Assembly: GCA_944389135.1 (NCBI GenBank)
Contig: CALXLG010000002.1
Location: 24,362-88,361 of the forward strand
Reading direction: 5' to 3'
DNA: 64,000 nt
DNA from: an uncultured Alphaproteobacteria bacterium
GTDB lineage: Bacteria > Pseudomonadota > Alphaproteobacteria > Rs-D84
Shown here: positions 315 through 24,204 of the stretch, piece by piece
Layout: each line of letters begins with the position of its first letter
How positions within the stretch are numbered: the first letter of the stretch is position 1
Program-made: the position numbers and the translations under genes
The notes under the pieces: model-generated
Seen by the model: the letters and a program-made list of their open reading frames with translations, nothing else
The model's database searches: none
What the model was told of the DNA's origin: nothing

Positions 315-1253
315 TTACACCCTAATTAAAGCAGCACCCCACGTTAAACCACTGCCAAACGCAGGATACAATATTAATTGTCCTTTCTTTATAATACCAT
401 TATCAAACGCATGCGCCAAAGCCAAAACACCTGATGCCCCACTAGTATTTGCATGCTTATCAACTGTTATTAATATCTTTTCTAGTGGGAAACCCAACCT
501 TTCGGCACCACTTTTTATAATGCGTAAATTTGCTTGATGTGGAATAATCCAATCAACATTATCTGCTGTAATTCCAGCATGTTCCATAATATAATTCGCC
601 GCCTCTGGCATCAAGGTTACTGCTTTTTTATAAGTTTCTGGACCATTCATTATTATTCTATGGTCTAATGACCCATGCAGCATATCAAACTCTTTACCGT
701 CAGACATTACAACAGTATCTATTATTCCAGAATAGCTTGATGTAGAATGCTCAAATATCAAAGCACCCGCCCCATCACCGAACAAAACAGCAGTACTGCG
801 GTCCGTCCAATCAATAAAACGAGTCATTTTTTCAGCACCAATCAGCATAATACGATTATGAATACCAGCTGTAAAAAACGCACGTGCACAATGAAGCGCA
901 TAAATATACCCAGTACAAGCACCACGAACATCGAATGCCGGAGCATTGCTTGTTGCACCAAGACGTCCTAAAACCTGCACACCAACAGATGGGAAATCCA
1001 ATTCTGGTGTTGTAGTTGCAACAATAACCATATCAATATCATTTATGGTTAACCCCGCATTATCTAATGCCCGTTGTGCAGCAATTGTTGCCATATCAAC
1101 AACGGTTTCATCGTCACGCGCAAAATGACGTTCACGCATTCCTGTACGTTGAACAATCCATTCGTCCGAAGTATCCATAATTTTTTCAAAATCTTGATTG
1201 GTCATTACCCGTTCCGGTAAATATGAACCATATCCAATCAATCTACTTCCCAT
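315..1253 (-). CDS. fabH: 3-oxoacyl-ACP synthase III (FabH)
   Basis: Full-length FabH-like sequence ('FEKIMDTSDEWIVQRTGMRERHFA', 'NAPAFDVRGACTGYIYAL', 'IPHQANLRII'). I trimmed the start to the ATG at 1253, which has a GGAAGGA RBS. Confidence 0.9.
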   Translation of the reverse strand: MGSRLIGYGSYLPERVMTNQDFEKIMDTSDEWIVQRTGMRERHFARDDETVVDMATIAAQRALDNAGLTINDIDMVIVATTTPELDFPSVGVQVLGRLGATSNAPAFDVRGACTGYIYALHCARAFFTAGIHNRIMLIGAEKMTRFIDWTDRSTAVLFGDGAGALIFEHSTSSYSGIIDTVVMSDGKEFDMLHGSLDHRIIMNGPETYKKAVTLMPEAANYIMEHAGITADNVDWIIPHQANLRIIKSGAERLGFPLEKILITVDKHANTSGASGVLALAHAFDNGIIKKGQLILYPAFGSGLTWGAALIRV

Positions 1254-1336
1254 TATCCTTCCTTTTGTCCGGGGTATTATACAAGCCAAGATTACAACTT
1301 GCAATATTAAAATCTATGAATAAAATATAGTGCGTT

Positions 1337-1412
1337 GTCCCCATAGTTCAACTGGATAGAATAGAGGTTTCCTAAACCTTTGATACAGGTTCGATTCCTG
1401 TTGGGGATACCA
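1337..1412 (+). tRNA. tRNA-Arg (anticodon CCT)
   Basis: 76-nt cloverleaf: acceptor GTCCCCA/TGGGGAT, anticodon loop TTCCTAA, T-loop GGTTCGATTCC, encoded CCA. Confidence 0.85.
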
Positions 1413-1510
1413 ACAGGAAGCGAACCTATGGCAAAGGTTCGAACCGCAGCAAAAAGGCGGACGGCAGTACGCCGGTTGCACGACCGTGCAATTTTGCCAG
1501 GTGGCGCAGC

Positions 1511-1529
1511 ATTCCTGTTGGGGATACCA
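1511..1529 (+). repeat. Direct repeat of the tRNA-Arg 3' end (attachment-site-like scar)
   Basis: The 19 nt 'attcctgttggggatacca' at 1394-1412 (tRNA 3' end) recurs exactly at 1511-1529. Confidence 0.7.
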
Positions 1530-1550
1530 AGCTTTTCAAAGGATTTTTAT

Positions 1551-1880
1551 ATGAAAAATAAAGCGATAAAACTAGGAATTATTGCAAGTATTTTGCCACA
1601 CTTATTTTGCTGCGTATTGCCAATTGTGTTGTCAGTTATATCTTTATTTGCACCGGAAGTTGCGCATGCAGAATTTATCCCTCATTGGTTCGAACCATGG
1701 TTATTTGTTTTTTCTGCCGTTATGCTTGTTGTGTCTTGGTACCTAGTCTTACGAGATTGTAAATGTGAATGTGAACATTGTCATGAAAAAGGTGGTCATA
1801 AAACACAAAAAATCATTCTTGGCATAATAACTATTATCTTTATAGTCAGCCTGATTTTACATTTATTAGCCCACCATTAA
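1551..1880 (+). CDS. MerT-like small metal-transport membrane protein (3 TM segments, CC pair in TM1, Cys/His-rich cytoplasmic loop)
   Basis: 109 aa. TM1 contains 'LFCCVLP'. The loop between TM2 and TM3 reads 'CKCECEHCHEKGGH'. This topology resembles MerT. I trimmed the six-frame ORF to the ATG at 1551 because its N-terminus overlaps the tRNA. Confidence 0.5.
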   Translation: MKNKAIKLGIIASILPHLFCCVLPIVLSVISLFAPEVAHAEFIPHWFEPWLFVFSAVMLVVSWYLVLRDCKCECEHCHEKGGHKTQKIILGIITIIFIVSLILHLLAHH

Positions 1881-1891
1881 AAAATATTAAA

Positions 1892-3478
1892 TCACACAAA
1901 CTTTTCTGGTACCAGATTTGTAATATTTTTCCAAATGCGTCTGAATATCGTTGTGTCTGGCGATTTATGATATACACGCGGTTTTTTATCACCTGGTCGA
2001 CTACCCGTCCAAACAGTTTTCCCATCTTCCATAGTAACACGCCACGATGTTTTTGTATCTCTGATAATCATTTCACGCAACTTATTTGCAAATTCTTTAC
2101 TTTCAAAAATTGCAACATTTTCTGTATTATAATATGCACTGCGTGGGTCCAAATTAAAACTGCCTATCCATGAAATATCATCATCAAAAACTATCGTTTT
2201 ACTGTGTAATACAGAAAAACTTGACTGCTTTCTTTCGCGATCGTGTTCCTGCCCACGTAAATTTTCTGCAGACAGCATAAACTCATACACGTCTGCCCCA
2301 GATTCTATCAACCGCTTACGATATTTTTCCCATTTTGCATAAACTGTCGGCGCATTTGTAGACGCCAAAGAATTCGTCACAATTGTCATATGAACACCAG
2401 AATCTTCTTCATGCAACATATGTTCCAATCCCCCTTGCCCCGGGACAAAATAAGCTGCAGATAAATATACCGAATCTTTAGTTTGTCCCCACAAATGTTG
2501 CAATGCTTTGATTATATCCCCACGGTATTCTTCTTTTTCACGCATTGACATTTCTACTTTGGATGGTGGGTCTGCCAAGAATTTGCCACGCCCCCAGCTA
2601 AAATCAAATTTTTTGTTTTTATATTCTGATTGTGCCAAAGATATTATCTTATTGTATTGTTCTATATCTTCTGCACTTTTCTTTTCAATTTCTTCAAATT
2701 TCTTTTCAAGCTTTCTCAAAGCCTTTTTAGACTTTGCCTTTGGAAATACTGACGCAGGTATAGACAAATGATAATTCCAATATTCATCAAAACTAGCAGT
2801 TGCATACTTTGTCATATCCCCGATAAATAAAACATCTGTATCAGAAAAGTTAGATGCAGTTTCTGGATAAAAATAATTACTGCCAACGTTTCTACCGCCT
2901 GTTATGTAAGCAATATTATCTACTATAAATAACTTATTATGCATTCTAGAATTTAAGCGATTAAAATCTAGCAAAAATTGTGGATAGTATAAAAACTTAG
3001 ACCTATTAGAGACAGTATTAAAGACCTTTACCTCTATATTAGGGTGCTGATTTAACAACATAACATCTGCAATATCAGATTTAGTACCGTAATCGTCTAT
3101 TAAAATACGAACCTTTACCCCCCTGTCCGCTGCTTTTTTCAGCTCGCCAATTAACACCTTGGACGAAAAATCATTACTATAAATATAAGTTTGTAAGTCA
3201 ATAGTTTTAGTTGCCATACGTGCAAAAGCCGCCCTTATTACAAAAGCAGACAAACCGTCTTCTATTAACGTTGCACCGCTAATATCATCCGCACTACTTA
3301 GTTCTTTGGCATAGCACTGCGCAATTGGCGTTTGCATAGGGTCAAACCCATAATCAGCAACCGTTATTTTTGGTGCATAATCGTTCAAGCGCTTATCATC
3401 AATAGTTGTAGGAACCGTCGTACACCCAATAAGCGGCAATGTAAAAACAAACAAAGAAACTCTTTTAACCCAAAACAA
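1892..3478 (-). CDS. Phospholipase D / cardiolipin-synthase family lipoprotein (two HKD motifs)
   Basis: Lipobox 'LPLIGC'. HKD motifs 'HNKLFIVDN' and 'HSKTIVFDD'. The start codon is TTG, preceded by AAAGGTGA. Confidence 0.8.
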   Translation of the reverse strand: MFWVKRVSLFVFTLPLIGCTTVPTTIDDKRLNDYAPKITVADYGFDPMQTPIAQCYAKELSSADDISGATLIEDGLSAFVIRAAFARMATKTIDLQTYIYSNDFSSKVLIGELKKAADRGVKVRILIDDYGTKSDIADVMLLNQHPNIEVKVFNTVSNRSKFLYYPQFLLDFNRLNSRMHNKLFIVDNIAYITGGRNVGSNYFYPETASNFSDTDVLFIGDMTKYATASFDEYWNYHLSIPASVFPKAKSKKALRKLEKKFEEIEKKSAEDIEQYNKIISLAQSEYKNKKFDFSWGRGKFLADPPSKVEMSMREKEEYRGDIIKALQHLWGQTKDSVYLSAAYFVPGQGGLEHMLHEEDSGVHMTIVTNSLASTNAPTVYAKWEKYRKRLIESGADVYEFMLSAENLRGQEHDRERKQSSFSVLHSKTIVFDDDISWIGSFNLDPRSAYYNTENVAIFESKEFANKLREMIIRDTKTSWRVTMEDGKTVWTGSRPGDKKPRVYHKSPDTTIFRRIWKNITNLVPEKFV

Positions 3479-3678
3479 ATTTTCACCTTTTGGCGAAGAT
3501 TATAGTACACATTTAGCAAACTTTACAAGTCAAATTCATTAAAAAAATTAACAATCGGAAAATATGCTTAATAATAAAGCGCTTTTATAAAAAACAACAT
3601 AATAATATATTGTATTTTTTGTTTGCGCCATTTTTCATAATATGATAAAATCTGAATAATAGAAGGGAAGTTTTCGCT

Positions 3679-5964
3679 ATGAAAAGATTGATTGCAGTAC
3701 TTAGCAGTTTGTTGGTTTTACCTGCTTTTGCAGAGGTTGTGCCTGCTTATTATTACGAAGAAATGATGGAATATTCTGACGAATATGAAACACCACAAGC
3801 AGAAGAACAAACAAATGAGGCTGCAGAAGAAACCGAACAAAAAGTTAATACACCAGTTGTTCCAGCTGTTGTAAGCCCACGTAATTCAAATACACGTTCT
3901 GCAGCATCTAGGGCAGTAGCAACTTCTACAACTACTGGGCGTAATGTATCTACACGTACTTCAAATACTACACCAGCCAGATCGGTTACCGCCAGAACTG
4001 CAACAACAACTGTTGCACCAACGACCAACACTGTACGTACCACAACTAGTGCAACGACCCGTCCAACTACAACGGGGCGCACAACGACGGCATCACGTTC
4101 AACTGCGGCTGCAATACGTTCTGCGACCACACCGGGCGTAACCACACGTGCAAGTTCAAAAACAAATAATGTAAATACAGCACGCGCTTCTATTGTACAA
4201 ACAGATACCGCAAGCACACCTTTGTATATCAGCAATCGTGCAGGTGTCAGTACAACAGCTGCATCAGTTCGTGCCCGTATACCAACAGCACGTGCAGGGA
4301 CATCTTCTATAACCACAACTTCTACAGAATCTACTTCTTCTACTATTTCTATGGACGAATTGGCACAGGTAACAGATTTCTGTAAAGCGCAATATACTGC
4401 ATGTATGGATAATTTCTGTAATGTATTAGATGATAATCAAGGTCGTTGCAGTTGCAGTTCTAATTTGGATAACTATGCAGAAACAGAAGCGGCATTAAAA
4501 CAAGCAACCGAAGAATTACAAGATGTTGCGCAAAAGATTCAGTATATCGGTCTATCTGCAGAACAGGTTGAAACTTTGTTCACACAGACCGAAGCAGAAC
4601 TAGAAATGCAAACAACAACAGATAATACAAAACTAAAGAACGATTTGGATAAAATTAAAGACCTTATTGTTGATGTACAATCTGGCAAGGCGAGTTCTTC
4701 TAGCAGTGGTTTAAGTTTTGATTTATCTGGCTTGCTTGATTTTTCAATAGATAGTACAGGTTTTGATTTAAGCTCACTACTTGGCACCGGCAGCAATACA
4801 AACAGTATCAGCAACCAGCGTGGTGAACAATTGTACAAGACAGCTGCCGCACGTTGTAAGGCGTCTGTATTAAACAGCTGTCAAGCACAGGGTGTTGATA
4901 TTTCAATCATAACAAATGCCTATGATTTGGAAATAGATAAGCAATGTATAATTTATGAACGTACTTTGACAGAATCTAATGACCAGATGGCATCAACAGT
5001 TAGAAACGCTAAAAACGTCTTACAAAAGGCGCGATTATTAGTTGCACAACAAAAGAATGCATATAATTTGCGTGAATGTATAACAGAGCTTGATAACTGC
5101 ATGCAAGAAGACATCGTTTGTGGGGATGATTACGAAAACTGTCTTGATCCGACTGGCAAATACATCGTTAATGGCGAAGTTGTTGTCGGTAGTGAACCTG
5201 GCTCACCATCAAACCCAGAAGCATCGATATATTCTGCCATGTGGAAAAAAGGCGACGACAACCCTTGGGCAGATGAAGACTATACTCTTAGCAAATTCAT
5301 CGAAGATACTGTTACATCAACACCGGTAACTACTGCATCAACAAATATATCTGAATATTTACAGAATAAAATTGGTTGGCACGATGATTCTGACGGTAAA
5401 AATTATGGTATGTGCATATCTATATTAAATCAGTGTCAAGACATTACATATACTGGAACAGGTCAAAACCTGAAATATAACCCAGCAAACAATGTAATTA
5501 AAGAATTCTTGAACAGAACACTGGTTCAAATCAAGGCCGCACAAGATGAAATATTATCAGATTACGCTGAAGATTGCGTAACAGATGTAAAATCATGCTT
5601 GGTGCAAAATAATTACGACGCTTCAAAACCTTTAAGCACCAGCGTCGCTATTAACGCATGTGATTCAATAATAAAAACATGCATGTCAGTTACAGGAGAA
5701 ACAGATATAGAAGGAGGAAAAACTAACTGGATACAAAGCATAGTTCAGGGTTATAATTGCCCAGAAGGTGCAACTGGAACATATCCAAATTGTGACTGTG
5801 GTTGGAAATCTGGCACAAACACTTTAGGATATGATTTATCAAATAATGAATGCAAATCCTGTCCTAGTGATGCATTAAAAACGAGCCCTTATCCGTATTG
5901 TACATGTCCTAATGACAAAACATATGACCAGGCAACTAACACTTGTAAAACTAGCAGCCCATGA
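3679..5964 (+). CDS. Secreted protein with signal peptide, acidic stretch, ~250-aa Thr/Ser/Arg-rich low-complexity linker and a Cys-rich C-terminal domain
   Basis: Signal peptide 'MKRLIAVLSSLLVLPAFA' and RBS GAAGGGAAG. The 'TTTGRNVSTRTSNTTPARS...' region is mucin-like. The C-terminal domain has more than 45 Cys in CxxC-type spacing. Confidence 0.6.
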   Translation: MKRLIAVLSSLLVLPAFAEVVPAYYYEEMMEYSDEYETPQAEEQTNEAAEETEQKVNTPVVPAVVSPRNSNTRSAASRAVATSTTTGRNVSTRTSNTTPARSVTARTATTTVAPTTNTVRTTTSATTRPTTTGRTTTASRSTAAAIRSATTPGVTTRASSKTNNVNTARASIVQTDTASTPLYISNRAGVSTTAASVRARIPTARAGTSSITTTSTESTSSTISMDELAQVTDFCKAQYTACMDNFCNVLDDNQGRCSCSSNLDNYAETEAALKQATEELQDVAQKIQYIGLSAEQVETLFTQTEAELEMQTTTDNTKLKNDLDKIKDLIVDVQSGKASSSSSGLSFDLSGLLDFSIDSTGFDLSSLLGTGSNTNSISNQRGEQLYKTAAARCKASVLNSCQAQGVDISIITNAYDLEIDKQCIIYERTLTESNDQMASTVRNAKNVLQKARLLVAQQKNAYNLRECITELDNCMQEDIVCGDDYENCLDPTGKYIVNGEVVVGSEPGSPSNPEASIYSAMWKKGDDNPWADEDYTLSKFIEDTVTSTPVTTASTNISEYLQNKIGWHDDSDGKNYGMCISILNQCQDITYTGTGQNLKYNPANNVIKEFLNRTLVQIKAAQDEILSDYAEDCVTDVKSCLVQNNYDASKPLSTSVAINACDSIIKTCMSVTGETDIEGGKTNWIQSIVQGYNCPEGATGTYPNCDCGWKSGTNTLGYDLSNNECKSCPSDALKTSPYPYCTCPNDKTYDQATNTCKTSSP

Positions 5965-6089
5965 ACAGATACAGGGCAAGCAACGTTACAGGAATGTGGA
6001 GAAGGAACACATCTTGACCCAACAACAAGAACGTGCATTCCAGACAATTAACAATCCCCAATTTGGGGATTTTTTTAATCTTTATAAAA

Positions 6090-6536
6090 TTAATTAAGTG
6101 TTAAATTTGGACGAGTGGTACGCAAGTTATTCAATGATTTTTCCTGCGCTTTCTTAAACGCTTCTGGGTTCCATATCTGAAAACTGGTACCACGTCCAAC
6201 AAAAACAGCCTTGTCCGTTATACCAGCATGACGCAATAAATCTTCGGGGATAACAATTCTGCCTGTCACATCAAAAGTTAATGGACGCGCATCCGCAAAC
6301 AACATCGCAGACAAATCATCTAATTCGCTGTCAAAAACACCCATTTTATCGGTTGCATTTGCCAACTGTTCCATACGAGACATAGATAAACCTTCTATGC
6401 AATTATTCGTAAAAGAACGATATAAAACAACGCCTGCAAATCTTTCATTTGAAACCGAAGCCCGAAAAGAGGCCGGTACAGAAATACGCCCCTTGGTATC
6501 CAAACGATTTTCATAAGATGAGAGAAACAATGACAT
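6090..6536 (-). CDS. mraZ: Transcriptional regulator MraZ (orphan; not followed by rsmH or fts genes)
   Basis: 148 aa with two DxxxR motifs ('DTKGRISVP', 'DVTGRIVIP') and a typical MraZ N-terminus 'MSLFLSSYENRLD'. Confidence 0.85.
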   Translation of the reverse strand: MSLFLSSYENRLDTKGRISVPASFRASVSNERFAGVVLYRSFTNNCIEGLSMSRMEQLANATDKMGVFDSELDDLSAMLFADARPLTFDVTGRIVIPEDLLRHAGITDKAVFVGRGTSFQIWNPEAFKKAQEKSLNNLRTTRPNLTLN

Positions 6537-6611
6537 TTATTTAAGGTCCTTGTTTTTTGGGCTTCTGCCCGTTCCTCTTTCAGACTTCATACGAAACGTA
6601 GCACGTCTTTT

Positions 6612-6657
6612 TATGGTTGTCAATGACATTTTATAATTCTTTTATGGGATTTTATGG
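6612..6657. promoter_or_regulatory. Putative MraZ operator: three TATGG(G) direct repeats upstream of mraZ
   Basis: TATGG at 6612, 6643 and 6653 (the last two are 10 bp apart), in the AT-rich divergent promoter region. E. coli MraZ binds TGGGN direct repeats at 10-bp phasing. Confidence 0.35.
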
Positions 6658-6918
6658 TTTTATAAATAAAATGATAAAAATTTAAAATAAAATTAAAATA
6701 TTTGTATTTTCTTCTTGACCTGCGATTCGTTTTTGTTCTAAGATTCAGGTATAGACAAGGAGAAAACAATAAAAAAGCCCAGAAATCTAAGAAACTCCCA
6801 GATTTCCGGACAAAATATAAATCAACATAAAAAATAAATTAGTTTTTTTGTAAATACGTTGTGTATATACAGGACTAAGTTATTTTTTGCAAAACACCCA
6901 GAAAGGAGGGAACCGCGC

Positions 6919-7254
6919 ATGTCAAAAAATATAAAAGAAATTATGATTGCCCTGAATAAAGTTTTAACAACAACAGTTTGGGTTAATGAAGACCGCCAAA
7001 TTATATCTTTGTCAGACGAACTACAAATTGGCAAAAACAATGCGCCACGTTCAATCGAAGATTTACCACGTGCATCGTTGGTTGGTGCATATGTATCGCT
7101 ACAAATTCGTACAGATAATTTTGATGTAGCTGCCGAAAACTTAGAAACAAAAACTTTGGCACTACGCGTAAAAGAAATGGTGTTTGCAGAAGCGAAAAAG
7201 ATTATTGACGCTGCCGACGCAGAACAAACACAAAAAGTTGCAAAGGCTGCCTAA
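6919..7254 (+). CDS. Hypothetical small protein (111 aa)
   Basis: Strong RBS AAAGGAGGG 7 nt before the ATG at 6919. A hairpin terminator follows. Confidence 0.5.
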   Translation: MSKNIKEIMIALNKVLTTTVWVNEDRQIISLSDELQIGKNNAPRSIEDLPRASLVGAYVSLQIRTDNFDVAAENLETKTLALRVKEMVFAEAKKIIDAADAEQTQKVAKAA

Positions 7255-7321
7255 TTTTCCGCAATGCGCGGTTAAATAAGGGCATGCACAAAGTTTCTGG
7301 GAAACCAGAAGGAAGGGAGCA

Positions 7322-7356
7322 GCCGCCGACAAGTAATTGTCGGCGGTTCTGTTTTG
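7322..7356. terminator. Bidirectional rho-independent terminator
   Basis: 'gccgccgaca agtaat tgtcggcgg' followed by ttctgtttt. It lies between the convergent 111-aa ORF and the autotransporter. Confidence 0.6.
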
Positions 7357-7357
7357 C

Positions 7358-10075
7358 TTAAAACATCATACTGCCCTTTATACTGCCGGAATAATTATTA
7401 TATCCCTGGCGCATTGAAACATCTGCCCCGACTTGCACCTCATAAACACCGCCCCAACCTATTTTCAACTTCACGCCTCCGTTTGCTTGCCAGCGCGGCA
7501 ACCTTTCAGATTGTATATAATATTCAGCATCCCCTAACTTCACATTTAAATCGTCGACATCTGCATGCAAGTCATAAGACCCACCAAAATCTATAACAGG
7601 GGTTATACTAATGTTATTATCCAGCCAAAAGCTATGAGCAAATGAAACACCCGCATAAGTAGTTAAAAAGTTCAAATCTGCAGATGATATTTCTTGTCCG
7701 GCAGTATCTGTTGATGGATTTCTATGTATAAACGTATACCTAGTGCCAAATGTCGGTAACATTTCCCAATTATAAAAAGGCGTTTTATAACCTATCTCGG
7801 ACCATAGGCCAGTTGTATACAACCCCATACTATCAAACAACTGAATACCTGCCACGTTTTTAGTTTCATCCAAATCTGTATAGAAAGAACTGGCTGTTGT
7901 ATTCCATATAAAACCACCGTTTTCATATTTTGCATATATTCCACCACCATAAGTTGGTGCATGCATTGTTCTGGCCCAGCTTTTTAATCTGTCATATTGA
8001 TAAGTATATGCTATACCCAAATTCCAATTATCTAAATCGCATTCTGCACCAAGCCCAAAACCATAACCGTATATATCAAAGTTCGCATAATATTTATCTT
8101 CTTTAAGCCTGCCGCCACTGCCAATTGTAGCTGCCCACAAAGCGCCATTTTCTACTGAGTATTCTTGACGTCCTGCAGAATCAAGAGACAATAAATTATC
8201 AAATCTTTCCACATATGATGTACCTAATATCTGCATAAGTGGGGCCGTAGACGGCGCCAACGCCGTTAACGCGTGAACATACCCCATTGCATCTAATTGA
8301 ACAAGCTCATTTAGTCTTTCATATACTTCATCCGCACTTGTATTATCACTACTTGGAACTTCTTGCCACGCAATTGCCGTGTTTTCATTGTTCTGGGTTC
8401 CGCCTGCATCTCTTATAACATCCAAAAACGTACTTTCTGGGATAACTTCATACCAACCGTCCCCAATTTTTAAAAATGCATATATATTATTATTAATTTC
8501 TGGCATAAAATTATCATTTATTGTTTGAGAACTTCTTAACAATTGCAAACGCAAGCTATCTTGACCGTCCATTGCAGAAGAATTAAGAACTATACTTAAT
8601 CTGGAATTATCAGAAATTGAAAAATTATCTGCTGTTAAATAACCATAAGTATTCGCATCTTGCACACTTAGGCCCAACACCGCACCAGATGAAAATGTTG
8701 CCGAATTAACAGATGCATTACTAAGCCCCAAATTCAATGTTGCCCCAGCAACTGTTAAATCTGTCGCTGAAAAGAATTTCCCGCTATTCCCAACACTAAC
8801 CGTACCACCTTCAATGTCTACCCTACCAGAAAATCCTGTCATATCTTCATTCAATACAATTTCACCATCTGCCGGCATAGTGGCAGATTCTAACTGATAT
8901 GGTCTATTAACAACAATTGAACCAGAACCCGTTATTCTATCATCAAATATAATTTCATGACCCGAACCAGCATTTAAATGTAAAATTTCTGTTGTATAAA
9001 TCGCATTTGATACACCACTTGACGTATTACCGCTAAATTCTATATTTTTATTTTGAGCTATCAAAAATAACGCATTTAAATTAAATATTGCCCCGCCACC
9101 ATCTGTTGCACTGTTATTACTAAAATTACTATCTATGATATACATATCATCCCAGTTATAAACAGCACCGCCATAAGTTGCGCTATTTCCAACAAAATCT
9201 GAATTATTTATAACAGCATACAAACCGTCTCCTACTATTCCATAATTACCTATTGCCCCACCTGTTACACCTGTATTATCTTGAAATAATGAATTGCTTA
9301 AATCCATCATACCAGTAGTATAAACAGCCCCCACATCTTGACTGCCTGTATTTCCTATAAAATATACATTGCTAAGTTTAGTATTATTAGAACTATATAT
9401 TGCCGCCCCACTTTGTGCACTATTAGAACTAAAGACGCTATTTGTAATAGTTAAATCACCGTCATTAAAAATAACACCCCCATAACGACTTGCAGAATTT
9501 TCTTGAAAATAACTGCCATCTATGACAGCACTTGTTCCGTACTGATTATATATCACACCACCATTACTTCTGGTTGCTGTATTATTTTGAAACGCACTGT
9601 TTAAAATATTTAAACTGCCTGCACTTGTCTGATAAACAACACTGCCGCCATATGCAGACGAATTATTACTAAATGCCGAATTTTGTATATCTACGACACC
9701 GCCTAAATTTGCAAAAACCGCCCCTTGCCCCGATTGATAAAAGCCATTAACAGAATTTTCTACTGTTGCAGTTTGATTAGATACAGTAAAATTACCCCCA
9801 TTTGTTAATGAAACTGTATAACCATTTGAAACTGTGAAACCGTTATAATTTTCGCCATTAAAATTATACCCACCACCATTTATTGTTGTATTCTGCGCCC
9901 CAGGAACACTTAAAAGACGCGAGGCTATCATATCTGCTGTAATATTTATATCGTTTGATGTTGTTGCTGTTTTATATAAATTATAAAAAGAACTAAAATC
10001 GTTTACGTCTGTGGCATAAACTGGTGAACTACACATCAACATAATATAAAATGAAGTTTTTCCAATGATGCGCAT
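7358..10075 (-). CDS. Pmp-repeat autotransporter (type V secretion; beta-helical passenger plus C-terminal beta-barrel)
   Basis: Signal peptide. More than 8 repeats of the FxxN...GGA[IV] Chlamydia-Pmp type (for example 'NSDFVGNSATYGGAVYN', 'DSNFSNNSATDGGGAIFN'). The ~280-aa C-terminal region is rich in Gly/Tyr/aromatic residues and ends in a terminal Phe. Confidence 0.8.
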   Translation of the reverse strand: MRIIGKTSFYIMLMCSSPVYATDVNDFSSFYNLYKTATTSNDINITADMIASRLLSVPGAQNTTINGGGYNFNGENYNGFTVSNGYTVSLTNGGNFTVSNQTATVENSVNGFYQSGQGAVFANLGGVVDIQNSAFSNNSSAYGGSVVYQTSAGSLNILNSAFQNNTATRSNGGVIYNQYGTSAVIDGSYFQENSASRYGGVIFNDGDLTITNSVFSSNSAQSGAAIYSSNNTKLSNVYFIGNTGSQDVGAVYTTGMMDLSNSLFQDNTGVTGGAIGNYGIVGDGLYAVINNSDFVGNSATYGGAVYNWDDMYIIDSNFSNNSATDGGGAIFNLNALFLIAQNKNIEFSGNTSSGVSNAIYTTEILHLNAGSGHEIIFDDRITGSGSIVVNRPYQLESATMPADGEIVLNEDMTGFSGRVDIEGGTVSVGNSGKFFSATDLTVAGATLNLGLSNASVNSATFSSGAVLGLSVQDANTYGYLTADNFSISDNSRLSIVLNSSAMDGQDSLRLQLLRSSQTINDNFMPEINNNIYAFLKIGDGWYEVIPESTFLDVIRDAGGTQNNENTAIAWQEVPSSDNTSADEVYERLNELVQLDAMGYVHALTALAPSTAPLMQILGTSYVERFDNLLSLDSAGRQEYSVENGALWAATIGSGGRLKEDKYYANFDIYGYGFGLGAECDLDNWNLGIAYTYQYDRLKSWARTMHAPTYGGGIYAKYENGGFIWNTTASSFYTDLDETKNVAGIQLFDSMGLYTTGLWSEIGYKTPFYNWEMLPTFGTRYTFIHRNPSTDTAGQEISSADLNFLTTYAGVSFAHSFWLDNNISITPVIDFGGSYDLHADVDDLNVKLGDAEYYIQSERLPRWQANGGVKLKIGWGGVYEVQVGADVSMRQGYNNYSGSIKGSMMF

Positions 10076-10095
10076 TCTATCTCTCCCTTAGAAAA

Positions 10096-10130
10096 CACAT
10101 ATAAAAAAATCGCCGAAAAAATCGGCGATA
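10096..10130. terminator. Bidirectional terminator hairpin between plsX and the autotransporter
   Basis: 'aaaaaaatcgccgaaaaaatcggcgat', a GC stem flanked by A/T tracts. Confidence 0.55.
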
Positions 10131-10162
10131 TCAATATTAATGATTTCCTAAAAGGCAAGATT

Positions 10163-11230
10163 TTATTCTTCTGTTGCGTTTATTTCTTCACGAATTTTTT
10201 CAACAGCCTGCGCCCTTTCTTTTATCACACTATTCAAATCCGCCCCAGTTAAATCCGCAGCATACTTAATAGAATTTGCAAACGCCAGCGCATCACTATT
10301 CCCATGTGTTTTAACTGCGAACCCCTTTAAGCCTAAGAACGTTGCACCCGCATAAGAACGAGGGTCTATTTTATTTTTCAATCTTTTAAACACGTGTACC
10401 AAGAAAAAAGCACCAATAATTGCTAAAATAGATTTCTTTAAGTTATCCACCAAAACACGCTTTATAAGTTTTGCTGTTCCCTCGACAGTTTTTAACACGA
10501 TATTACCAGTAAAACCGTCTGTGACAACAACCTGCACATTTCCACCACCAATATCATTACCCTCTACAAAACCGATATATTCATATGGTAATTCATCTTT
10601 ATGCGCACTTAATAACTTATTAAGCTTTTGCAGTGTTTCGTTACCTTTTGTATCTTCTTCCCCAATATTTAACACACCAACCTTTGGGCGAGGCATTTTA
10701 CCAATAACTTCTGCATAAACACTGCCAAGAATTGCAAAATCGAACAGTTCACGTTCACCACACTGCACATTTGCCCCAAGGTCTAATACAACCACACGAG
10801 AATCACCACCACCAGACGGTAGCATTGTTGTTATCGCAGGTCTTGAAATTCCATCAATTGTTTTAAGCGCCAGTTTTGATAAAGACATTAATATTCCTGT
10901 ATTACCAGCACTAACAACAGCGGCAGAATTTCCTTCACGTACGTCTTTTATTGCCATATACATAGAAGTATCCTGAGCATGACGAATAACATCACGAACT
11001 TTGTCTGTACCTTTTATTGCATTAGGTGCATGGATAAGTTCACAATTACGGGCAACACGTGGATACTTAGAAAGCAACTTACGTAATTTTTTTTCATCCC
11101 CAAATAGGCGAAAAAATACTTTGTCTTCCCCGTTCTGATACAAGAATTGGTTCATGCCGCCCAAAACAGCGTTTGGACCTTTATCACCACCCATTGCATC
11201 AATTGATATGATTTTCTTTTCTGTTGGCAT
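10163..11230 (-). CDS. plsX: Phosphate acyltransferase PlsX
   Basis: 'ISIDAMGGDKGP' N-terminus. Full-length, 355 aa. Confidence 0.9.
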   Translation of the reverse strand: MPTEKKIISIDAMGGDKGPNAVLGGMNQFLYQNGEDKVFFRLFGDEKKLRKLLSKYPRVARNCELIHAPNAIKGTDKVRDVIRHAQDTSMYMAIKDVREGNSAAVVSAGNTGILMSLSKLALKTIDGISRPAITTMLPSGGGDSRVVVLDLGANVQCGERELFDFAILGSVYAEVIGKMPRPKVGVLNIGEEDTKGNETLQKLNKLLSAHKDELPYEYIGFVEGNDIGGGNVQVVVTDGFTGNIVLKTVEGTAKLIKRVLVDNLKKSILAIIGAFFLVHVFKRLKNKIDPRSYAGATFLGLKGFAVKTHGNSDALAFANSIKYAADLTGADLNSVIKERAQAVEKIREEINATEE

Positions 11231-11972: not shown

Positions 11973-14900
11973 TTATATATCTAACAATTGTTGATGTGCA
12001 TTACCTTCACGTGCAAGCTTTTCTGCTTTTTCTTCTTCTTTCGCAATTTCACGAACACGACGAACATATGCACCTGTTCCAATTGGTATCAAACGACCAA
12101 CAATTAAGTTTTCATTAATACCAACCAACTTATCTGTTGCACCGCTAATTGCAGCATCTACTAATACTTTCGTAGTTTGCTGGAACGATGCGTTAGATAT
12201 AAATGAACGACTTGTCAAAGAAGCACGCGTCAAACCAACCAATACCTGAGAAGCAACAGCTGGTTTTCCACCATCATGCGCGACACGTGCATTTTCTTCT
12301 TCAAAATCAACACGATCAACAACCTGCCCCATCAAGAATCCAGTATCACCTGGGTTTGTGATTTCAACACGACGAGTCATTTCACGTATCAAAATTTCAA
12401 TATGCTTGTCGTTAATTACCACGCCTTGCAGACGATAAACTTGCTGTATTTGTTCTACCATAAATGTAGCCAACGCTTTTTGCCCCAATATACGCAAGAT
12501 ATCTTGTGGTACAGGATCACCGTCAACCAACTTATCTGCCTTTCTGACAACATCACCACTGCGAACCAACAAGTTTGTACCCTTTGGAACAGCATATTCA
12601 ACAGGTGCTGTGCCATCGTCAGGAACAATACGAACAAGAATCTTTGACTTTGCGTCTTCTAATTCAATCGTACCATCAATTTCAGCAAGCAATGCTGGGT
12701 TTGCAGGACGACGAACTTCTAACAATTCGTTAACGCGTGGCAAACCACCAGTAATATCGCTTGTACGTTTTGATTGAACAGGTATTCTTGCTAACACGTC
12801 GCCAGCAACAACTTTGTCGCCGTTGGCAACATTCAAGATAGAATACATTGGCAATAAGTATTCAGCAATCTTTTTACCACCCAAAGAAATTATTTCACCC
12901 TTTTCATTTACCAACGTAATTGCAGGATTCAATGCTTTCTTTGTATTTGTCTTCCAATTAATAACTTTACGTGAAACAATACCCGTCATAGAATCAACTT
13001 CTTCTTGATAAGATACGTTTTCAATCAAGTCATTAAATTGAACAATACCGTCTTTTTCCGCAATGATTGTATTTGAATATGGGTCCCATTCTGCAACCTT
13101 TGCGCCCTTTTCAACCTTATCACCATCGTTAACAATCAACATAGAAGCATATGGCAAATTACTTGAGAACAGCTTTTCACCTTTATCATCAACAACAGCC
13201 AATTCGCCGTTTCTTGATAATACAACTATACGACCAGCCGAGTTCTTAATTGTATTAACACCGGTCAATTTGATTGTACCTGAAACAGGAACTTCGATAA
13301 AGTGACTTTCTGCACCACCTGCCGCAACACCACCAATATGGAAGGTACGTAGCGTCAACTGAGTACCAGGTTCACCAATTGACTGACCTGCGATAACACC
13401 AACGGCTTCACCAACATGAACCAGCGCATTACGTGACAAGTCCATACCATAACATTTTGCACACAAACCGTCACTGCAACATGTAAGAACACTGCGAACA
13501 TCAACACTTGGCAACCCTGATTCATTTATCTTCTTTGCCGCAGTCTTTGTAATCAGTTCACCTGCAGGAACGATAACTTCTTTCGTTATTGGATGAATTA
13601 TATCATGTGCAGCTGTACGTCCTAAAACAACATCACCCAGCGCAACAGACAATGTACTGCCTTGATAAACAGGTTTCGCAGTAATGTATTCTGTTGTACC
13701 ACAATCATGTTCCGTAATAACTGTATTCTGAGCCAATTCAACCAAACGACGTGTCAAATAACCAGCGTCAGCAGTTTTCAAAGCCGTATCCGACATACCT
13801 TTACGTGCACCGTGGGTTGACGTAAAGTATTCAGACATGGTCAAACCTTCCTTAAAGTTCGATATAATTGGAACTTCAATAATTGAACCGTCTGGTTTCT
13901 GCATCATACCACGCATACCCGCCAACTGCTGAATCTGACGTTTGGAACCACGTGCACCAGATAACGCCATCATCAAAACTGAATTCCAGTTATCACCAGT
14001 TGTCTTACCAAGTGCCGCATAGGCTAAATCACCCAGTTTATCGGTTGTTTTCTGCCACAAGTCAATTAACTTATTGTGTCTTTCACCACCAGATAACAAA
14101 CCGTTCTGATACTGTTCTTCAATTTCTTCTGCCGCTTTTTCAGATTCTGCAATCAAATCTTTCTTTTCTTCTGGAATTACAATGTCGTCGAAACCAATTG
14201 AGATTCCACTGCGTGCAGCTTGTTCAAAACCAGTATCTTTCAAAGCGTCCGCCAAAAGAATTGTTGCTTTATCACCACAACGTTCATAAGTAGTTGCAAG
14301 CAAAGCTTTTATTTCTTTTACCGGCATTACTTTATTTACCAAATCAAATGGCATATCATCAGATTTTGGTAACAATTCACCCAAAATCATACGACCTGCT
14401 GTTGTCTTGTATATCTTGCCGTTAATACGCGCAAAAATTGGTGTATGTAAAGTAATTGTCTTGTTTTCCAAAGCCAACTTCACTTCGTCCATATTTGCAA
14501 AACGTGGTGATTTTTCTGTATGTTCGCCATTTATCAAAGATATATAGTAAACACCTAAAACCATGTCTTGTGATGGCACAATCATAGGTTCACCGTTTGC
14601 AGGTGACAGAACGTTATTAGAAGACAACATCAATGTACGTGCTTCTAATTGTGCTTCCAAGGAAATTGGAACGTGCACAGACATCTGGTCACCGTCAAAG
14701 TCAGCATTAAATCCTTTACATACCAACGGATGCAAACGAATAGCTTTACCTTCAATCAATACAGGTTCAAATGCCAACAAAGACAATCTATGCAATGAAG
14801 GTGCACGGTTTAACAATACAGGATGTTGGTAAATTACTTTTTCCAAGATTTCCCAAACAATGTCTTCACCGTTTTCAACCATCTTGCGGGCTGTCTTTAA

Positions 14901-16082
14901 AGTATTAGCATAATCACCTGCTAACAATCTTGCATAAACGAATGGTTTGAATAATTCCAAAGCCATTGTTTTCGGCAACCCAACCTGATGCAATTTTAAT
15001 GATGGTCCTGATACAATTACAGAACGTCCAGAATAATCAACACGTTTACCCAGCAAATTCATACGGAAACGTCCTGATTTTCCACTTAAAGAATCTGACA
15101 AAGACTTCAGCGGACGACGGTTCTGTGAAACCATTGGGCGCGCTTTGTGTCCATTATCAAACAATGAATCTACAGCTTCCTGTAACATACGTTTTTCATT
15201 ACGTACGATAATTTCAGGTGCATGCATTTCAATAAATCTTTTCAAACGGTTATTACGTATAATAACACGACGATACAAATCATTTAAGTCCGATGCCGCA
15301 ACATGTCCTGCATCTAATGTAACCAATGGACGCATATCCGGTGGTATTACAGGAATAATATCAGGCAACATCCACGCAGGTTCTGTCTTAGAATCTAAGA
15401 AAGCTTCAACTAACTTTAACTGTTTGATTAAAGCTTTACGTTTTGCATCTGATTTTGTTTCTGATATTTCAGCACGTAAACGTGTACGTTCATCACCCAT
15501 ATCCAAATTAGCAATTATGCTTCTGATTCCTTCTGCACCGATACCAACATGGAAAGCATCTGCACCAAATTCTTCAACTGCGTTTTGGTATTCATCTTCG
15601 CTGATTACATCATATTGTTTCAAGTTTGTTAAACCTGGTTCAATAACAATGTATGCATCATAAGAAATAACTTGTTCCAATTTCTTTTGTGGCAAGTTAT
15701 TTAACAAAGTTGCAATTTTACCTTCGCGCAAGAACCATGTATGTGCAACAGGCATAGCTAATTTAATATGCCCCATACGTTCACGACGAACAGTAGAAGA
15801 ACCAACTTCTACACCGCAACGTTCACAAACAACGCCACGGAATTTAATTCTTTTATATTTACCGCAAGCACATTCGTAATCTTTAACAGGCCCGAAGATT
15901 TGCTGACAGAACAATCCTTCTGGTTCTGGTTTCAAAGAGTGATAGTTAATAGTTTCTGGCTTTTTAACTTCGCCATGTGACCAAGAAAGAATTTCTTCTG
16001 GTGATGCAATAGTTATGCGCAATGCATCAAATTGTTCCTTGGTTTCAATTTGTCCGAATATCTTCTGCAACATATTGGTCAT
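11973..16082 (-). CDS. rpoC: DNA-directed RNA polymerase subunit beta' (RpoC)
   Basis: 1369 aa with the conserved 'NADFDGDQM' active site and zinc-binding Cys. Confidence 0.95.
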   Translation of the reverse strand: MTNMLQKIFGQIETKEQFDALRITIASPEEILSWSHGEVKKPETINYHSLKPEPEGLFCQQIFGPVKDYECACGKYKRIKFRGVVCERCGVEVGSSTVRRERMGHIKLAMPVAHTWFLREGKIATLLNNLPQKKLEQVISYDAYIVIEPGLTNLKQYDVISEDEYQNAVEEFGADAFHVGIGAEGIRSIIANLDMGDERTRLRAEISETKSDAKRKALIKQLKLVEAFLDSKTEPAWMLPDIIPVIPPDMRPLVTLDAGHVAASDLNDLYRRVIIRNNRLKRFIEMHAPEIIVRNEKRMLQEAVDSLFDNGHKARPMVSQNRRPLKSLSDSLSGKSGRFRMNLLGKRVDYSGRSVIVSGPSLKLHQVGLPKTMALELFKPFVYARLLAGDYANTLKTARKMVENGEDIVWEILEKVIYQHPVLLNRAPSLHRLSLLAFEPVLIEGKAIRLHPLVCKGFNADFDGDQMSVHVPISLEAQLEARTLMLSSNNVLSPANGEPMIVPSQDMVLGVYYISLINGEHTEKSPRFANMDEVKLALENKTITLHTPIFARINGKIYKTTAGRMILGELLPKSDDMPFDLVNKVMPVKEIKALLATTYERCGDKATILLADALKDTGFEQAARSGISIGFDDIVIPEEKKDLIAESEKAAEEIEEQYQNGLLSGGERHNKLIDLWQKTTDKLGDLAYAALGKTTGDNWNSVLMMALSGARGSKRQIQQLAGMRGMMQKPDGSIIEVPIISNFKEGLTMSEYFTSTHGARKGMSDTALKTADAGYLTRRLVELAQNTVITEHDCGTTEYITAKPVYQGSTLSVALGDVVLGRTAAHDIIHPITKEVIVPAGELITKTAAKKINESGLPSVDVRSVLTCCSDGLCAKCYGMDLSRNALVHVGEAVGVIAGQSIGEPGTQLTLRTFHIGGVAAGGAESHFIEVPVSGTIKLTGVNTIKNSAGRIVVLSRNGELAVVDDKGEKLFSSNLPYASMLIVNDGDKVEKGAKVAEWDPYSNTIIAEKDGIVQFNDLIENVSYQEEVDSMTGIVSRKVINWKTNTKKALNPAITLVNEKGEIISLGGKKIAEYLLPMYSILNVANGDKVVAGDVLARIPVQSKRTSDITGGLPRVNELLEVRRPANPALLAEIDGTIELEDAKSKILVRIVPDDGTAPVEYAVPKGTNLLVRSGDVVRKADKLVDGDPVPQDILRILGQKALATFMVEQIQQVYRLQGVVINDKHIEILIREMTRRVEITNPGDTGFLMGQVVDRVDFEEENARVAHDGGKPAVASQVLVGLTRASLTSRSFISNASFQQTTKVLVDAAISGATDKLVGINENLIVGRLIPIGTGAYVRRVREIAKEEEKAEKLAREGNAHQQLLDI

Positions 16083-16115
16083 GTATTTTGCTCCTTTCAG
16101 TCGCTAAAAGTACTG

Positions 16116-16160
16116 CGTGGCTGGGGCATTACCGTTTCCGGTAATGCACTGCCCCGCCAC
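16116..16160 (-). promoter_or_regulatory. Long hairpin in the rpoB-rpoC intergenic region
   Basis: 'gtggctggggcattaccg tttc cggtaatgcactgccccgccac', an ~18-bp imperfect stem immediately after the rpoB stop. Confidence 0.4.
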
Positions 16161-19100
16161 TTAATCTATTTTCTTTGGCGTCATTGCCAAGCCTAAACCA
16201 CGTAATTCGCGAACTAATACGTTAAAGGCTTCTGGTGTTCCCGTCTGGATATCATTACTACCCGATATAATTGATTCATACATTTTTGTACGACCTGTTA
16301 TATCGTCTGATTTTACAGTCAACATTTCGCGCAGTAAGTGGGCGGCACCATGTGCTTCTAATGCCCAAACTTCCATTTCACCCAAACGCTGACCACCCAT
16401 ATGAGCCTTACCAGACAACGGTTGCTGCGTTACCAAAGAATAATTACCAATTGAACGTGCGTGAATCTTTTCATCAACAAAGTGATGCAACTTCAGCATG
16501 TACATTACACCAACCGTAACAGGTCTTGCGAATTTCTCGCCTGTCATACCGTCGTACAACGTGAACTGACCTGATTCTGGCAATTTGGCCAATTTCAACA
16601 TAGAACGAATGTCTTCTGGTGTCGCACCGTCAAATGTTGGTGTTGCCATTGGTACACCGTCTTTCAACAATGCCGCTTCTGCACGAACATCCGTATCTGT
16701 CATCTTTTCTAACTTATCAGCAACTTCTTTGCCGTAAACTTTACCCATAATTGTACGCAAGTCATCTGTAACGGCGCGTTTCTGTTTTACTTCTTCCAGA
16801 ACTTCGCCAATCTGCTGACCTAACGTACGTGCCGCCATACCAAGGTGCGTTTCTAATATCTGACCGATATTCATACGACTTGGCACACCAAGCGGATTTA
16901 ATACGATATCTACAGGTGTACCATCTTCCATATATGGCATATCTTCAATTGGTACTACCTTAGAAACGATACCCTTGTTACCGTGACGTCCTGCCATCTT
17001 ATCACCAGGTTGCAGTTTCATCTTATGAGCAATGTAAACTTTTACTTCTTTCAAAACGCCCGCATTCAACGAATTGCTTTCTGTTACTTTTGCAACTTCT
17101 GCATCTGCTTTCTCATTCAAAAGCTTTAATTTAGCAACATGTTGTTCACGCAATTCATCAATCTTTGCCTGCGCTTCTTTGTTGCGTACAACCAGCTTCT
17201 TTACATCTGATGGTTTAATGCCTTCAAACACTTCTTCTGTCAGTTTCTTACCAACAAAAGGTTTCAAGCTGCCTGTGCCCGCATCAATAATTTGCCCTTC
17301 TGCAATCTGAAATACCTGATCAGCAAAACCTTTTTCAATGATAGAAGTTTCTTCTTCACGGTCTTTGTTAATCTTTTCAATCTTTTGCAGTTCTATCATC
17401 TGCGTACGTTCGTCTTTCTTTACGCCATGACGCGTCAGAACGTTAACGCCAATAACAGTACCTTCTTCGTTTGGTCCTACACGCAAAGAAGTATCTTTTA
17501 CGTTCAAAGCCTTTTCACCAAAGATATTACGTAAAAGTGCTTCTTCTGGTGTTAATAAAGTTTCTGATTTTGGTGAAACACGTCCTACCAAAATATCACC
17601 TTGTTTAACACGAGCCCCAACATATATGATACCTGATTCGTCCAAATTCTTTAACGCTTCTTCACTTACATTTGGAATATCGCGTGTAAAGCTTTCTGGC
17701 CCTAATTGTGTATCACGAACTTTGAATTCTTTCTCAACGATTTTAATAGATGTAAATACATCATCACGAGAAATACGTTCTGATATAACAATAGAGTCTT
17801 CGTAGTTATAACCACGCCATGGAACGAATGCAACTAGAACATTGCGACCCAAAGCCAATTCACCATAGTTCATCGCAGAACCGTCCGCAATTATATCACC
17901 TGCTGAAACACGATCCCCAACTTTTACCAATGGTTTTTGATGTATCAATGTTTCACTGTTACTACGTTCAAATTTTTCCAGATTGTAAATATCAACACCT
18001 GTCACAACATTACGGCTGTTCATACATTTTACAACGATACGGTTTGCATCAACAGATTCAACAACACCACTGTGCTTTGCAACCTTACCTGTTCTGGAAT
18101 CACGCGCAACCTCACGTTCAATACCAGTACCAACAAGTGGTGCCTGAACACGTAACAATGGAACTGCCTGACGTTGCATGTTTGAACCCATCAATGCACG
18201 GTTCGCGTCGTCATTTTCAACGAACGGTATCAAACCTGTTGCAATAGATACTACCTGACGTGGTTCAACGTCAATCAGGTCAATTTCTTCTTTTGGAACC
18301 ATTGTAAATTCACCGTCTACACGTGCCGTTACCATGTCTTCCGCCAATACACCTGTTGCTGTTGTAGGTGTATTTCCTTGGGCAATTTTATGTCCCAATT
18401 CTTCATCAGCAGTCAAGTATACCATTTTGTCAGTAATCTTGCTGTTTTCTACAACGTAATAAGGTGTTTCAATAAAGCCATATGGATTTACACGTGCGTA
18501 TGTCGCCAAGTGGTTAATCAAACCAATATTTGCACCTTCTGGTGTATGAATTGGGCAAAGTCTGCCATAGTGTGTTGGATGAACGTCTCGGACGTCAATA
18601 CCTGCACGATCACGATTCAAACCACCAGGACCCAACGCAGAAATCAAACGTTTATGTTCTACTTCTGTCAATGGGTTATAAGCTTCCATAAACTGAGATA
18701 ACTGAGATGTTCCCAAAAATTCTGAAATCAAAGACATTAATGGTTTTACATTGACAACATCTTGTGGTTGCATATTTGCAATGTTTGGTGAAGATAAGCT
18801 TTCACGAACCAAACGTTCAACACGCAACATACCTGTACGGAAATTCTGTTCTAATAATTCACCAACCGTACGTACACGACGATTAGATAAGTTATCAATA
18901 TCATCAACCGTATCTTTATGGTCTATGATATTTGTCAAAGTTTTCAAAACCGCCAAGAAATCAGACTTTGTTAACAAACGTTCGTCTTCTGGTTTTTTAC
19001 CAGAATCTATTTTCAAACGCTTGTTCATCTTAAAGCGACCAACTGCAGACAAATCATAATATGATGCATCAAAACCCTGACGCATAAATAAATTAATTGC

Positions 19101-23974: not shown

Positions 23975-24204
23975 AAAACTACCTTATACACACCTGTTTT
24001 TTGTACCATCTGACCCCGATAGTCTGCGACAAGATAGCACACCTGTACAAAAAATCAAGTGGAAATATTATACGTTTTTAATCGCAATTGCGCAAGTAAA
24101 ATTTAAAAGTTTTTGTTAGTAATTTCTGATTTTAGTATACTTTTTACTTGCGTGCCCCTACTATTTTTTTCTACAATCATCTTAATGAAAGGGAGAGGAA
24201 CACA

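Follow-up and report, generated by a model that had tools for sequence, protein, structure and literature searches.

What is the secreted, cysteine-rich protein encoded at positions 3679–5964 of a 64-kb stretch of chromosome from an uncultured Rs-D84 alphaproteobacterium (contig CALXLG010000002.1, hereafter the window), and what might it do for a bacterium of this kind? An earlier reading of the DNA (the original prediction) had described its product as an exported protein with an adhesin-like architecture resembling eukaryotic surface proteins and unusual in bacteria. Judged by its sequence, the protein is a member of an unnamed family of secreted Cys-rich proteins restricted to Rs-D84, in which it falls into the first of at least three paralogous subfamilies. 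Our tentative reading is that of a secreted scaffold, probably stapled by disulfides, which would display a variable binding tail; both its localisation and its function are inferred.

A lineage-restricted protein family

A search with residues 226–761 against 90% clusters recovered at least 1,191 proteins, none of which has a name or a Pfam domain. A profile run against 1.84 billion representatives of 50% clusters returned 659 matches at E ≤ 1e-3, of which 457 had E ≤ 1e-10 and 217 had E ≤ 1e-30. Relatives are encoded in 256 species genomes. They come from metagenome-assembled genomes (MAGs) out of the guts of humans, chickens, ruminants, horses and termites, which carry the label Candidatus Enterousia, uncultured Alphaproteobacteria or Rickettsiales; the records bearing a relative include one circular chromosome (958,618 bp). 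Enterousia corresponds to the genus Rs-D84 of GTDB (PMC8035907), and the family was confined to Rs-D84 or Enterousia-type Alphaproteobacteria; the few relatives filed under other taxon titles (Bacteroides fragilis, Muribaculaceae) had flanks with Rs-D84 synteny, and because the synteny is the same we read them as mis-binned contigs. The architecture is therefore not an oddity of one genome, as its description as unusual in bacteria might suggest, and belongs instead to a lineage-wide core gene of Rs-D84. A homologue search with mid-distance queries found only 9 proteins, probably owing to low-complexity words swamping the candidates. A phage or mobile origin was also considered and rejected, as no relatives were found in viral contigs, PHROGs gave no match and the chromosomal context is conserved.

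Members of the order Rs-D84 have genomes of about 1 Mb or less, lack respiration and many biosynthetic pathways, and are predicted to be obligate symbionts or parasites with many uncharacterised envelope proteins (PMC12306168).

The common layout of the subfamilies is a signal peptide, a basic tract rich in Thr, Ser and Arg (T/S/R), and a Cys-rich module which we refer to as module A (Table 1); the window protein has all three elements, including the module A signature. The second subfamily is equally large, about 36% identical to the first, carries the motif SCQEQYNECMDQFCAV..RCSCS and occurs together with subfamily 1 in the same genomes. Members of the third subfamily (L083 at 4708–6768, and a copy in L054 at 3648–5804) have only module A in common with the window protein (hhalign probability 97.4%, E = 1.2e-11), and at 686 aa with 28 Cys they keep the order of signal peptide, basic T/S/R/N tract and Cys-rich domain. 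The L054 copy lies just upstream of the pair formed by the subfamily-1 gene and its neighbour, a gene of the phospholipase D (PLD) superfamily. In the window itself there is no second paralogue, the module A hidden Markov model matching only the open reading frame (ORF) at 3679–5964 (E = 9e-55). Tandem duplicates of the subfamily-1 gene were seen in some Enterousia genomes (L057, L066 and L080, with two matches each, and L085 at 8001–10307), and the contig of L057 also carries a subfamily-2 paralogue (P0354) ~85 kb away. Two distant genomes (L083 at 13074–18187, L085 at 16176–18307) share a conserved run of three to four genes without a Pfam match, 3–6 kb from the subfamily-2 gene. The products measure 431, 478, 402 and at least 434 aa; a signal peptide is present in one or more of them, and membrane segments in others.

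An invariant cysteine core with a predicted helical fold

The protein is Cys-rich as proposed (4.8% of residues 225–761 vs. a background of 0.7%), although the count of ~45 Cys was too high: there are 26, all within residues 235–756. Pairs of the form C-x6-C occur seven times against 1.2 ± 1.0 in 20,000 shuffles, none of which reached seven. In an alignment of 107 sequences from subfamilies 1 and 2, extending down to 33% identity, 18 core positions (C235, 242, 247, 257, 259, 393, 401, 423, 467, 474, 481, 488, 579, 586, 633, 640, 661 and 668) are each at least 99% Cys. Rather than the single Cys domain of ~450 aa described previously, we find module A, a flexible loop, a second module (module B) and a variable tail. 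Module A carries the signature C-x6-C-MD-x-FC-x9-RC-x-C, formed by the first five of the core Cys, and the loop that follows (residues 334–375), a candidate docking motif, is conserved in sequence and holds two FDL/LDF motifs.

The structure of the core was predicted with AlphaFold2. A run on a multiple sequence alignment (MSA) of 20 sequences was unusable, with a predicted local distance difference test score (pLDDT) of 49, and was replaced by a run on the 107-sequence MSA (pLDDT 76.3, predicted template modelling score 0.60), in which most of residues 460–680 exceed 90. The predicted core is mostly alpha-helical. Confidence in module B is mostly 84–97, about 77 in the first ten residues and lower in the loop at residues 511–560; the model places long helices at residues 408–457 (50 residues) and 605–643, and a conserved hairpin with the sequence YIVNGEVVVG. 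Foldseek found no relative of this model in the PDB (best E = 1.0, template modelling score (TM) at most 0.23) or in BFVD (best E = 0.28), the hits in both being generic long-helix noise only. PDB sequence searches with two profiles gave no match, and Pfam, NCBIfam (E ≤ 10) and PHROGs returned only noise for the protein. A cytoplasmic Cys-rich metalloprotein of the Fe–S or Zn type is not indicated either, since the protein has a Sec signal peptide and the Cys-rich part has no Pfam or NCBIfam domain match to a metalloprotein or any other family.

The 18 invariant Cys probably form about nine disulfides in the periplasm after Sec export, as their invariance, their even number and the export signal suggest. 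Many of them are spaced i/i+7 on the predicted helices, and in this they recall the twin-Cx9C/Cx3C (CHCH) hairpins, where paired Cys lie on one helix face; disulfides may likewise staple neighbouring helices here. The window protein differs from CHCH proteins in its C-x6-C spacing, its bacterial origin, its Sec export and its core of ~460 aa, and the two are not homologous.

The N-terminal half

Export by the Sec route, as originally proposed, is borne out by the form of the N-terminus (MKRLIAVLSSLLVLPAFA, followed by EV in the mature protein): a K/R n-region, a hydrophobic core and an A-x-A site, with no lipobox Cys. The motif AFAE[VI][AV]P is retained in 117 of 120 close homologues, and the signal peptide together with the first mature residues (AFA/EVAPxYY, the slash marking the putative cleavage site; window positions 3679–3760) is unusually conserved, with a non-synonymous substitution rate (dN) of 0.02–0.10. 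This hints at a specific recognition step.

The stretch that follows is acidic (12 D/E vs. 1 K/R in residues 21–58) and gives way to the low-complexity T/S-rich region that had been noted behind it. This tract covers ~166 aa (residues 59–224), fewer than the ~250 first given, and consists of 29% T, 16% S, 15% A and 11% R, against 6.3, 6.5, 8.2 and 4.5% in the window proteome; 93% of it is accounted for by T, S, R, A, N, V, P and G, and it is strongly basic (19 K/R vs. 2 D/E). Residues 1–226 are predicted to be disordered, as read from a pLDDT below 50 in the shallow 20-sequence model. The tract does have conserved features: several Arg positions are kept across homologues, as are the motifs ARASIVQTDT..TPLY and RVPTIRVG.

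Such a region invites comparison with the Thr/Ser-rich (mucin-like, PT-type) linkers of secreted bacterial proteins, which it resembles in being rich in T, S and A, predicted disordered and, through indels, variable in length between species. It differs from them in its basic charge with Arg at conserved positions, in the lack of tandem repeats in the DNA, and in its recurrence ahead of module A as an architectural element of three paralogous subfamilies, so that the term mucin-like is misleading here. The suggestion that the tract might vary in length by phase variation found no support, because it holds no simple-sequence repeat (a repeat scan gave two trivial arrays only, score 30) and shows no indel against a strain (L001) that is 97–98% identical.

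A fast-evolving loop and a modular tail

Whilst the core changes slowly, other parts of the protein change rapidly. Values of dN are 0.07–0.14 in modules A and B1 of the core, against 0.39–0.76 in the acidic block, the T/S/R tract, the loop at residues 511–560 and the tail; in the loop alone they reach 0.57–0.76 vs. the more distant relatives. For the closest pair, the ratio of non-synonymous to synonymous rates (dN/dS) falls from 0.93 in the tail to 0.55 in the loop and does not exceed 0.07 in the core, with few substitutions behind these estimates.

The tail of the window protein comprises two units of the pattern C-P-x(5-9)-Y-P-x-C-x-C-x(6-10)-Y-x5-N-x-C. Within the family the length of the C-terminal extension varies between 0 and about 1,670 aa, and the extension is missing from a strain (P0002) that is 95% identical. 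Homologue tails include Listeria–Bacteroides repeats (PF09479) in seven cases, ephrin-receptor-like modules (PF07699) in two and an EB module (PF01683) in one, whilst Pfam matches nothing in most of the family's long tails. These modules mark the tail as a region of extracellular type. The eukaryote-like surface architecture attributed to the protein is thus found in part, in the eukaryote-type modules of homologue tails; its role as an adhesin is a matter of interpretation. A search for disulfide-rich adhesin domains was similarly divided, finding the extracellular modules of those homologues and no match in the window protein itself.

Possible function and alternative explanations

Attachment or recognition is suggested by the combination of Sec export, an invariant Cys core, a shared N-terminal half, a modular hypervariable tail and an organism predicted to depend on contact with other cells. 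A near-universal, exported, multi-copy protein with one half conserved and the other hypervariable shows the pattern expected of such a factor. In the scaffold reading, Sec export and cleavage of the signal peptide would yield a mature protein of three parts: a disordered N-terminal region, first acidic and then strongly basic and T/S/R-rich; a conserved helical core which about nine disulfides would lock into a rigid scaffold; and a fast-evolving C-terminal tail of small 4-Cys units that could be lost, duplicated or replaced. The basic tract, module A and the FDL/LDF loop may hold the protein on the bacterium's own envelope or on a conserved partner, leaving the loop at residues 511–560 and the tail as the exposed binding end that would contact a host, a partner cell or a substrate. 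The adjacent PLD-family lipoprotein may work at this interface too; its gene lies directly upstream and divergent in 73 of 80 loci, as against only 26 with mraZ directly downstream. We put the probability of this reading somewhat short of even, because surface exposure, disulfides, anchoring by the N-terminal half and cooperation with the PLD protein are all interpretations.

Several observations weigh against it. The strongest is that no outer-membrane route is evident in the protein, which has no beta-barrel, two-partner secretion (TPS) domain or lipobox, and the 64-kb window showed no type II secretion system; the protein may for this reason stay periplasmic. The search for a TPS domain gave no Pfam match, and residues 1–226, as noted, are modelled with low confidence. 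A barrel of the type V autotransporter or Helicobacter Hop kind was found neither in the window protein nor in its model, nor among the domains of 32 long homologues. The protein's own tail (residues 691–761) matches no Pfam adhesion domain (PF09479, PF01683, PF07699 or EGF type), its fast evolution could reflect relaxed constraint rather than selection (dN/dS is below 1), and the adjacency of the PLD gene may simply be inherited gene order.

If the protein does remain inside, it could be a structural protein of the periplasm or the outer membrane that stiffens the envelope by intra- or intermolecular disulfides, with the basic tract binding peptidoglycan or lipopolysaccharide (LPS). The model for such a role is OmcB, the chlamydial 60-kDa cysteine-rich outer-membrane-complex protein, which is Sec-exported, Cys-rich and beta-rich, with a basic N-terminal segment. 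The window protein resembles OmcB in its export, its Cys content, the basic segment ahead of the Cys part and its origin in a host-dependent bacterium with a reduced genome. The structural role would also agree with a Sec signal as the only export signal and the lack of any determinant of outer-membrane translocation, with the invariance of the 18 core Cys, with a near-universal gene that sits among housekeeping genes behind a strongly conserved promoter and Shine-Dalgarno sequence, and with an organism that makes peptidoglycan and LPS (related loci encode MurG, FtsW, LpxD and PagL). Against this, an internal protein would not be expected to carry a tail of 0 to about 1,670 aa with extracellular-type modules, or to lose it between strains that are 95% identical. 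The predicted core is helical, unlike that of OmcB, for which we know of no hypervariable C-terminal extension; Pfam and NCBIfam searches at E ≤ 10 gave no match beyond noise to an OmcB (Chlam_OMP6) model, nor is the protein homologous to any other known envelope protein. Anchoring in the manner of the Brucella-type peptidoglycan-linked alphaproteobacterial proteins, which are marked by Ala-Asp at the mature N-terminus (PMC10787603), is not supported: the motif is absent in subfamily 1, where the mature protein starts with EV(A/V)P, and the pattern A-x-A/(A)D[GDN] occurs in only 34 of 118 subfamily-2 sequences (about 30%). Taken together, we consider a structural role of this kind unlikely.

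A second alternative, which we regard as improbable, is that the protein is released as an effector or toxin to act on partner or host membranes, possibly together with the PLD lipoprotein, and could aid lipid scavenging by binding lipid or inserting into the membrane. The PLD gene is retained far above other neighbours, the helical core has a fairly hydrophobic conserved hairpin, and Rs-D84 is reported to lack lipid biosynthesis pathways (PMC12306168). Foldseek, however, gave nothing above noise for the ClyA, Hbl, Nhe or Tc toxin folds (Tc toxin probability at most 0.07, TM at most 0.10), and PHROGs held no toxin or phage match. Alpha-helical pore formers have to refold on a large scale, which about nine disulfides would impede, and in the loci examined subfamilies 2 and 3 have no PLD neighbour, except for the subfamily-3 copy in L054.

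Least probable of all is an abundant, self-assembling, S-layer-like coat subunit with the core as lattice and the variable parts outward, which would suit strong constitutive expression (as the highly conserved promoter and Shine-Dalgarno sequence suggest), near-universality in the lineage and variability limited to one loop and the tail, but not several paralogues with very different tail lengths in one genome, nor the lack of similarity to any known S-layer protein by Pfam, PDB profile or Foldseek.

The scaffold reading has its own parallels amongst known proteins. Helicobacter pylori Hop adhesins (BabA, SabA) combine conserved disulfides in a helical ectodomain with variable parts that bind the ligand, and the window protein is like these ectodomains in principle; it lacks the outer-membrane beta-barrel end of the Hop proteins and has no match in the PDB by sequence or fold. 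Likewise, surface proteins with Listeria–Bacteroides, EB or ephrin-receptor-like modules share those modules with some homologue tails and none with the tail of the window protein. In principle, then, the protein is similar to OmcB, Hop ectodomains and Listeria–Bacteroides-repeat proteins, yet it fails every test for a known system that could be run, and is best described as a new family with a new predicted fold in a familiar kind of role.

A broader and rather unlikely extension of the scaffold reading is that the three subfamilies make up a cell-contact apparatus of an obligately partner-dependent alphaproteobacterium. It would consist of an anchoring and display unit of new fold (signal peptide, basic T/S/R tract, module A and FDL/LDF loop, which form the shared unit), with no known outer-membrane translocator, interchangeable Cys-rich heads that decide the host or partner, and the PLD lipoprotein acting on the contacted membrane. 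If true, heads that are in part eukaryote-like would set the host or partner cell of each Enterousia lineage. Rs-D84/Enterousia, whose genomes are smaller than 1 Mb, are widespread in human, livestock, bird and termite guts and are predicted to live off other cells, whilst nothing is known of how they contact them (PMC12306168); the family is a candidate for this step. It adds a sizeable group of uncharacterised proteins whose predicted fold is without a relative in the PDB or BFVD, and gives work with antibodies, metaproteomics, recombinant binding assays or structure determination a definite object.

The gene and its flanking signals

The ORF is a single unbroken frame of 761 codons, with none of the interruptions that would have pointed to a pseudogene. 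Position 3679 is the probable start, backed by a Shine-Dalgarno sequence and by an N-terminus common to all homologues. The 200-bp region between the Cys-rich gene and the PLD gene is strongly conserved at both ends, and each end has a putative promoter-like element (Table 1).

Table 1 Features of the Cys-rich gene, its product and its flanks (window positions)
Feature	Position	Strand	Remarks
PLD-superfamily lipoprotein gene	1892–3478	−	Divergent; two PLDc_2 stretches; lipobox LIGC
TATAAT element	3499–3504	−	PLD side of intergenic region; conserved; putative function
Conserved 20-mer block AAGTCAAATTCATTAAAAAA	3527–3546		PLD side of intergenic region; putative function
Extended −10-like element TGATAAAAT	3643–3651	+	No change across 10 aligned species; putative promoter
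Nearly invariant block TAATAGAAGGGAAG	3657–3670	+	Holds the Shine-Dalgarno sequence; from aligned intergenic sequences
Shine-Dalgarno sequence AGAAGGGA	3661–3668	+	Conserved ahead of ATG
Subfamily-1 Cys-rich gene	3679–5964	+	Complete ORF; 761 aa; TGA stop
Signal peptide, residues 1–18 (MKRLIAVLSSLLVLPAFA)	3679–3732	+	Putative cleavage site from A-x-A rule
Mature N-terminus EVAPxYY, then acidic fast-evolving stretch, residues 19–58	3733–3852	+	From conservation and composition
Antisense ORF, 187 aa	3753–4316	−	By-product of codon composition, not a gene
Basic T/S/A/R-rich tract, residues 59–224	3853–4350	+	Predicted disordered
Module A, residues 225–333	4351–4677	+	Cys-rich start, then four helices (model)
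Loop, residues 334–375	4678–4803	+	Conserved sequence, low model confidence; SFDLSGLLDF, GFDLSSLLG
Module B, residues 376–690	4804–5748	+	Mostly helical (predicted); 13 invariant Cys
Hypervariable, indel-rich loop in module B, residues 511–560	5209–5358	+	From substitution rates and alignment
Variable tail, residues 691–761	5749–5961	+	Two 4-Cys units, modelled as small beta hairpins
Post-stop open frame	5965–6051	+	28 codons past TGA; ends TAA, just before hairpin
Hairpin AATCCCCAATTTGGGGATT	6053–6071		Terminator-like; + strand reading followed by T-run TTTTTAATCT

The minus-strand ORF that overlaps the gene had been dismissed as an artefact of the low-complexity region, and we agree. The bias towards ACA, GCA, CGT and ACT codons leaves one antisense frame nearly without stops, and a family search with the ORF gave no match. 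The stop-free antisense length runs from 70 to 237 aa among 69 homologues, and because it differs so widely the ORF is not conserved.

Beyond the TGA stop the frame stays open, and its peptide TDTGQATLQECGEGTHLDPTTRTCIPDN bears a likeness to half a tail unit (C...T-x-T-C). It may conceivably be a remnant of a further unit, and a longer ancestral tail may have been cut by a nonsense mutation at the TGA (5962–5964), a stop also present in the 98%-identical strain L001; a 28-codon open frame would arise by accident with a chance of roughly 15%, as a rough estimate. Recoding of TGA was rejected as an explanation of this frame, since TGA closes 7 of the 36 stop-free stretches of at least 200 codons in the six frames of the window, and rpoB and rpoC of the window read normally. 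The hairpin behind the frame has the look of an intrinsic terminator on the plus strand only, the minus strand offering a palindromic stem without a T-run.

Genomic neighbourhood

The product of the neighbouring PLD gene scores under the cardiolipin-synthase cut-offs. In many loci this gene also adjoins a gene for a small membrane protein (window positions 1380–1880, +) with weak MerT/MerC-like matches and a CxCxxCxC motif (CKCECEHC).

Two genes from the Cys-rich gene, and often but not always syntenic with it, positions 7358–10075 (−) encode a 905-aa protein with chlamydial Pmp-type repeats (PF02415, TIGR01376), whose C-terminus appears by eye to be beta-rich and autotransporter-like; it is likely a second surface protein near the Cys-rich gene. 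The rest of the window is core chromosome: rpoB/rpoC, plsX, fabH, ihf, mraZ, yidC, gyrA, leuS, an RND pump with TolC, comEC, and virB8, virB9 and virB10. The genes plsX, fabH and ihfA are usually contiguous in Alphaproteobacteria. In the window (315–11230) they are split by the Pmp-like gene, orf6859, mraZ, the Cys-rich gene, the PLD gene and the membrane-protein gene, and because the fabH–ihf segment is inverted or moved in related species the spot appears prone to rearrangement. The mraZ gene stands alone, without the rest of the dcw cluster. Further along lie the type IV secretion system genes virB8 (24148–24885), virB9/CagX (24913–26445) and virB10/TrbI (26467–28971); the VirB9 homologue has a SPOR domain at its C-terminus, and VirB10, with 834 aa, is unusually long.

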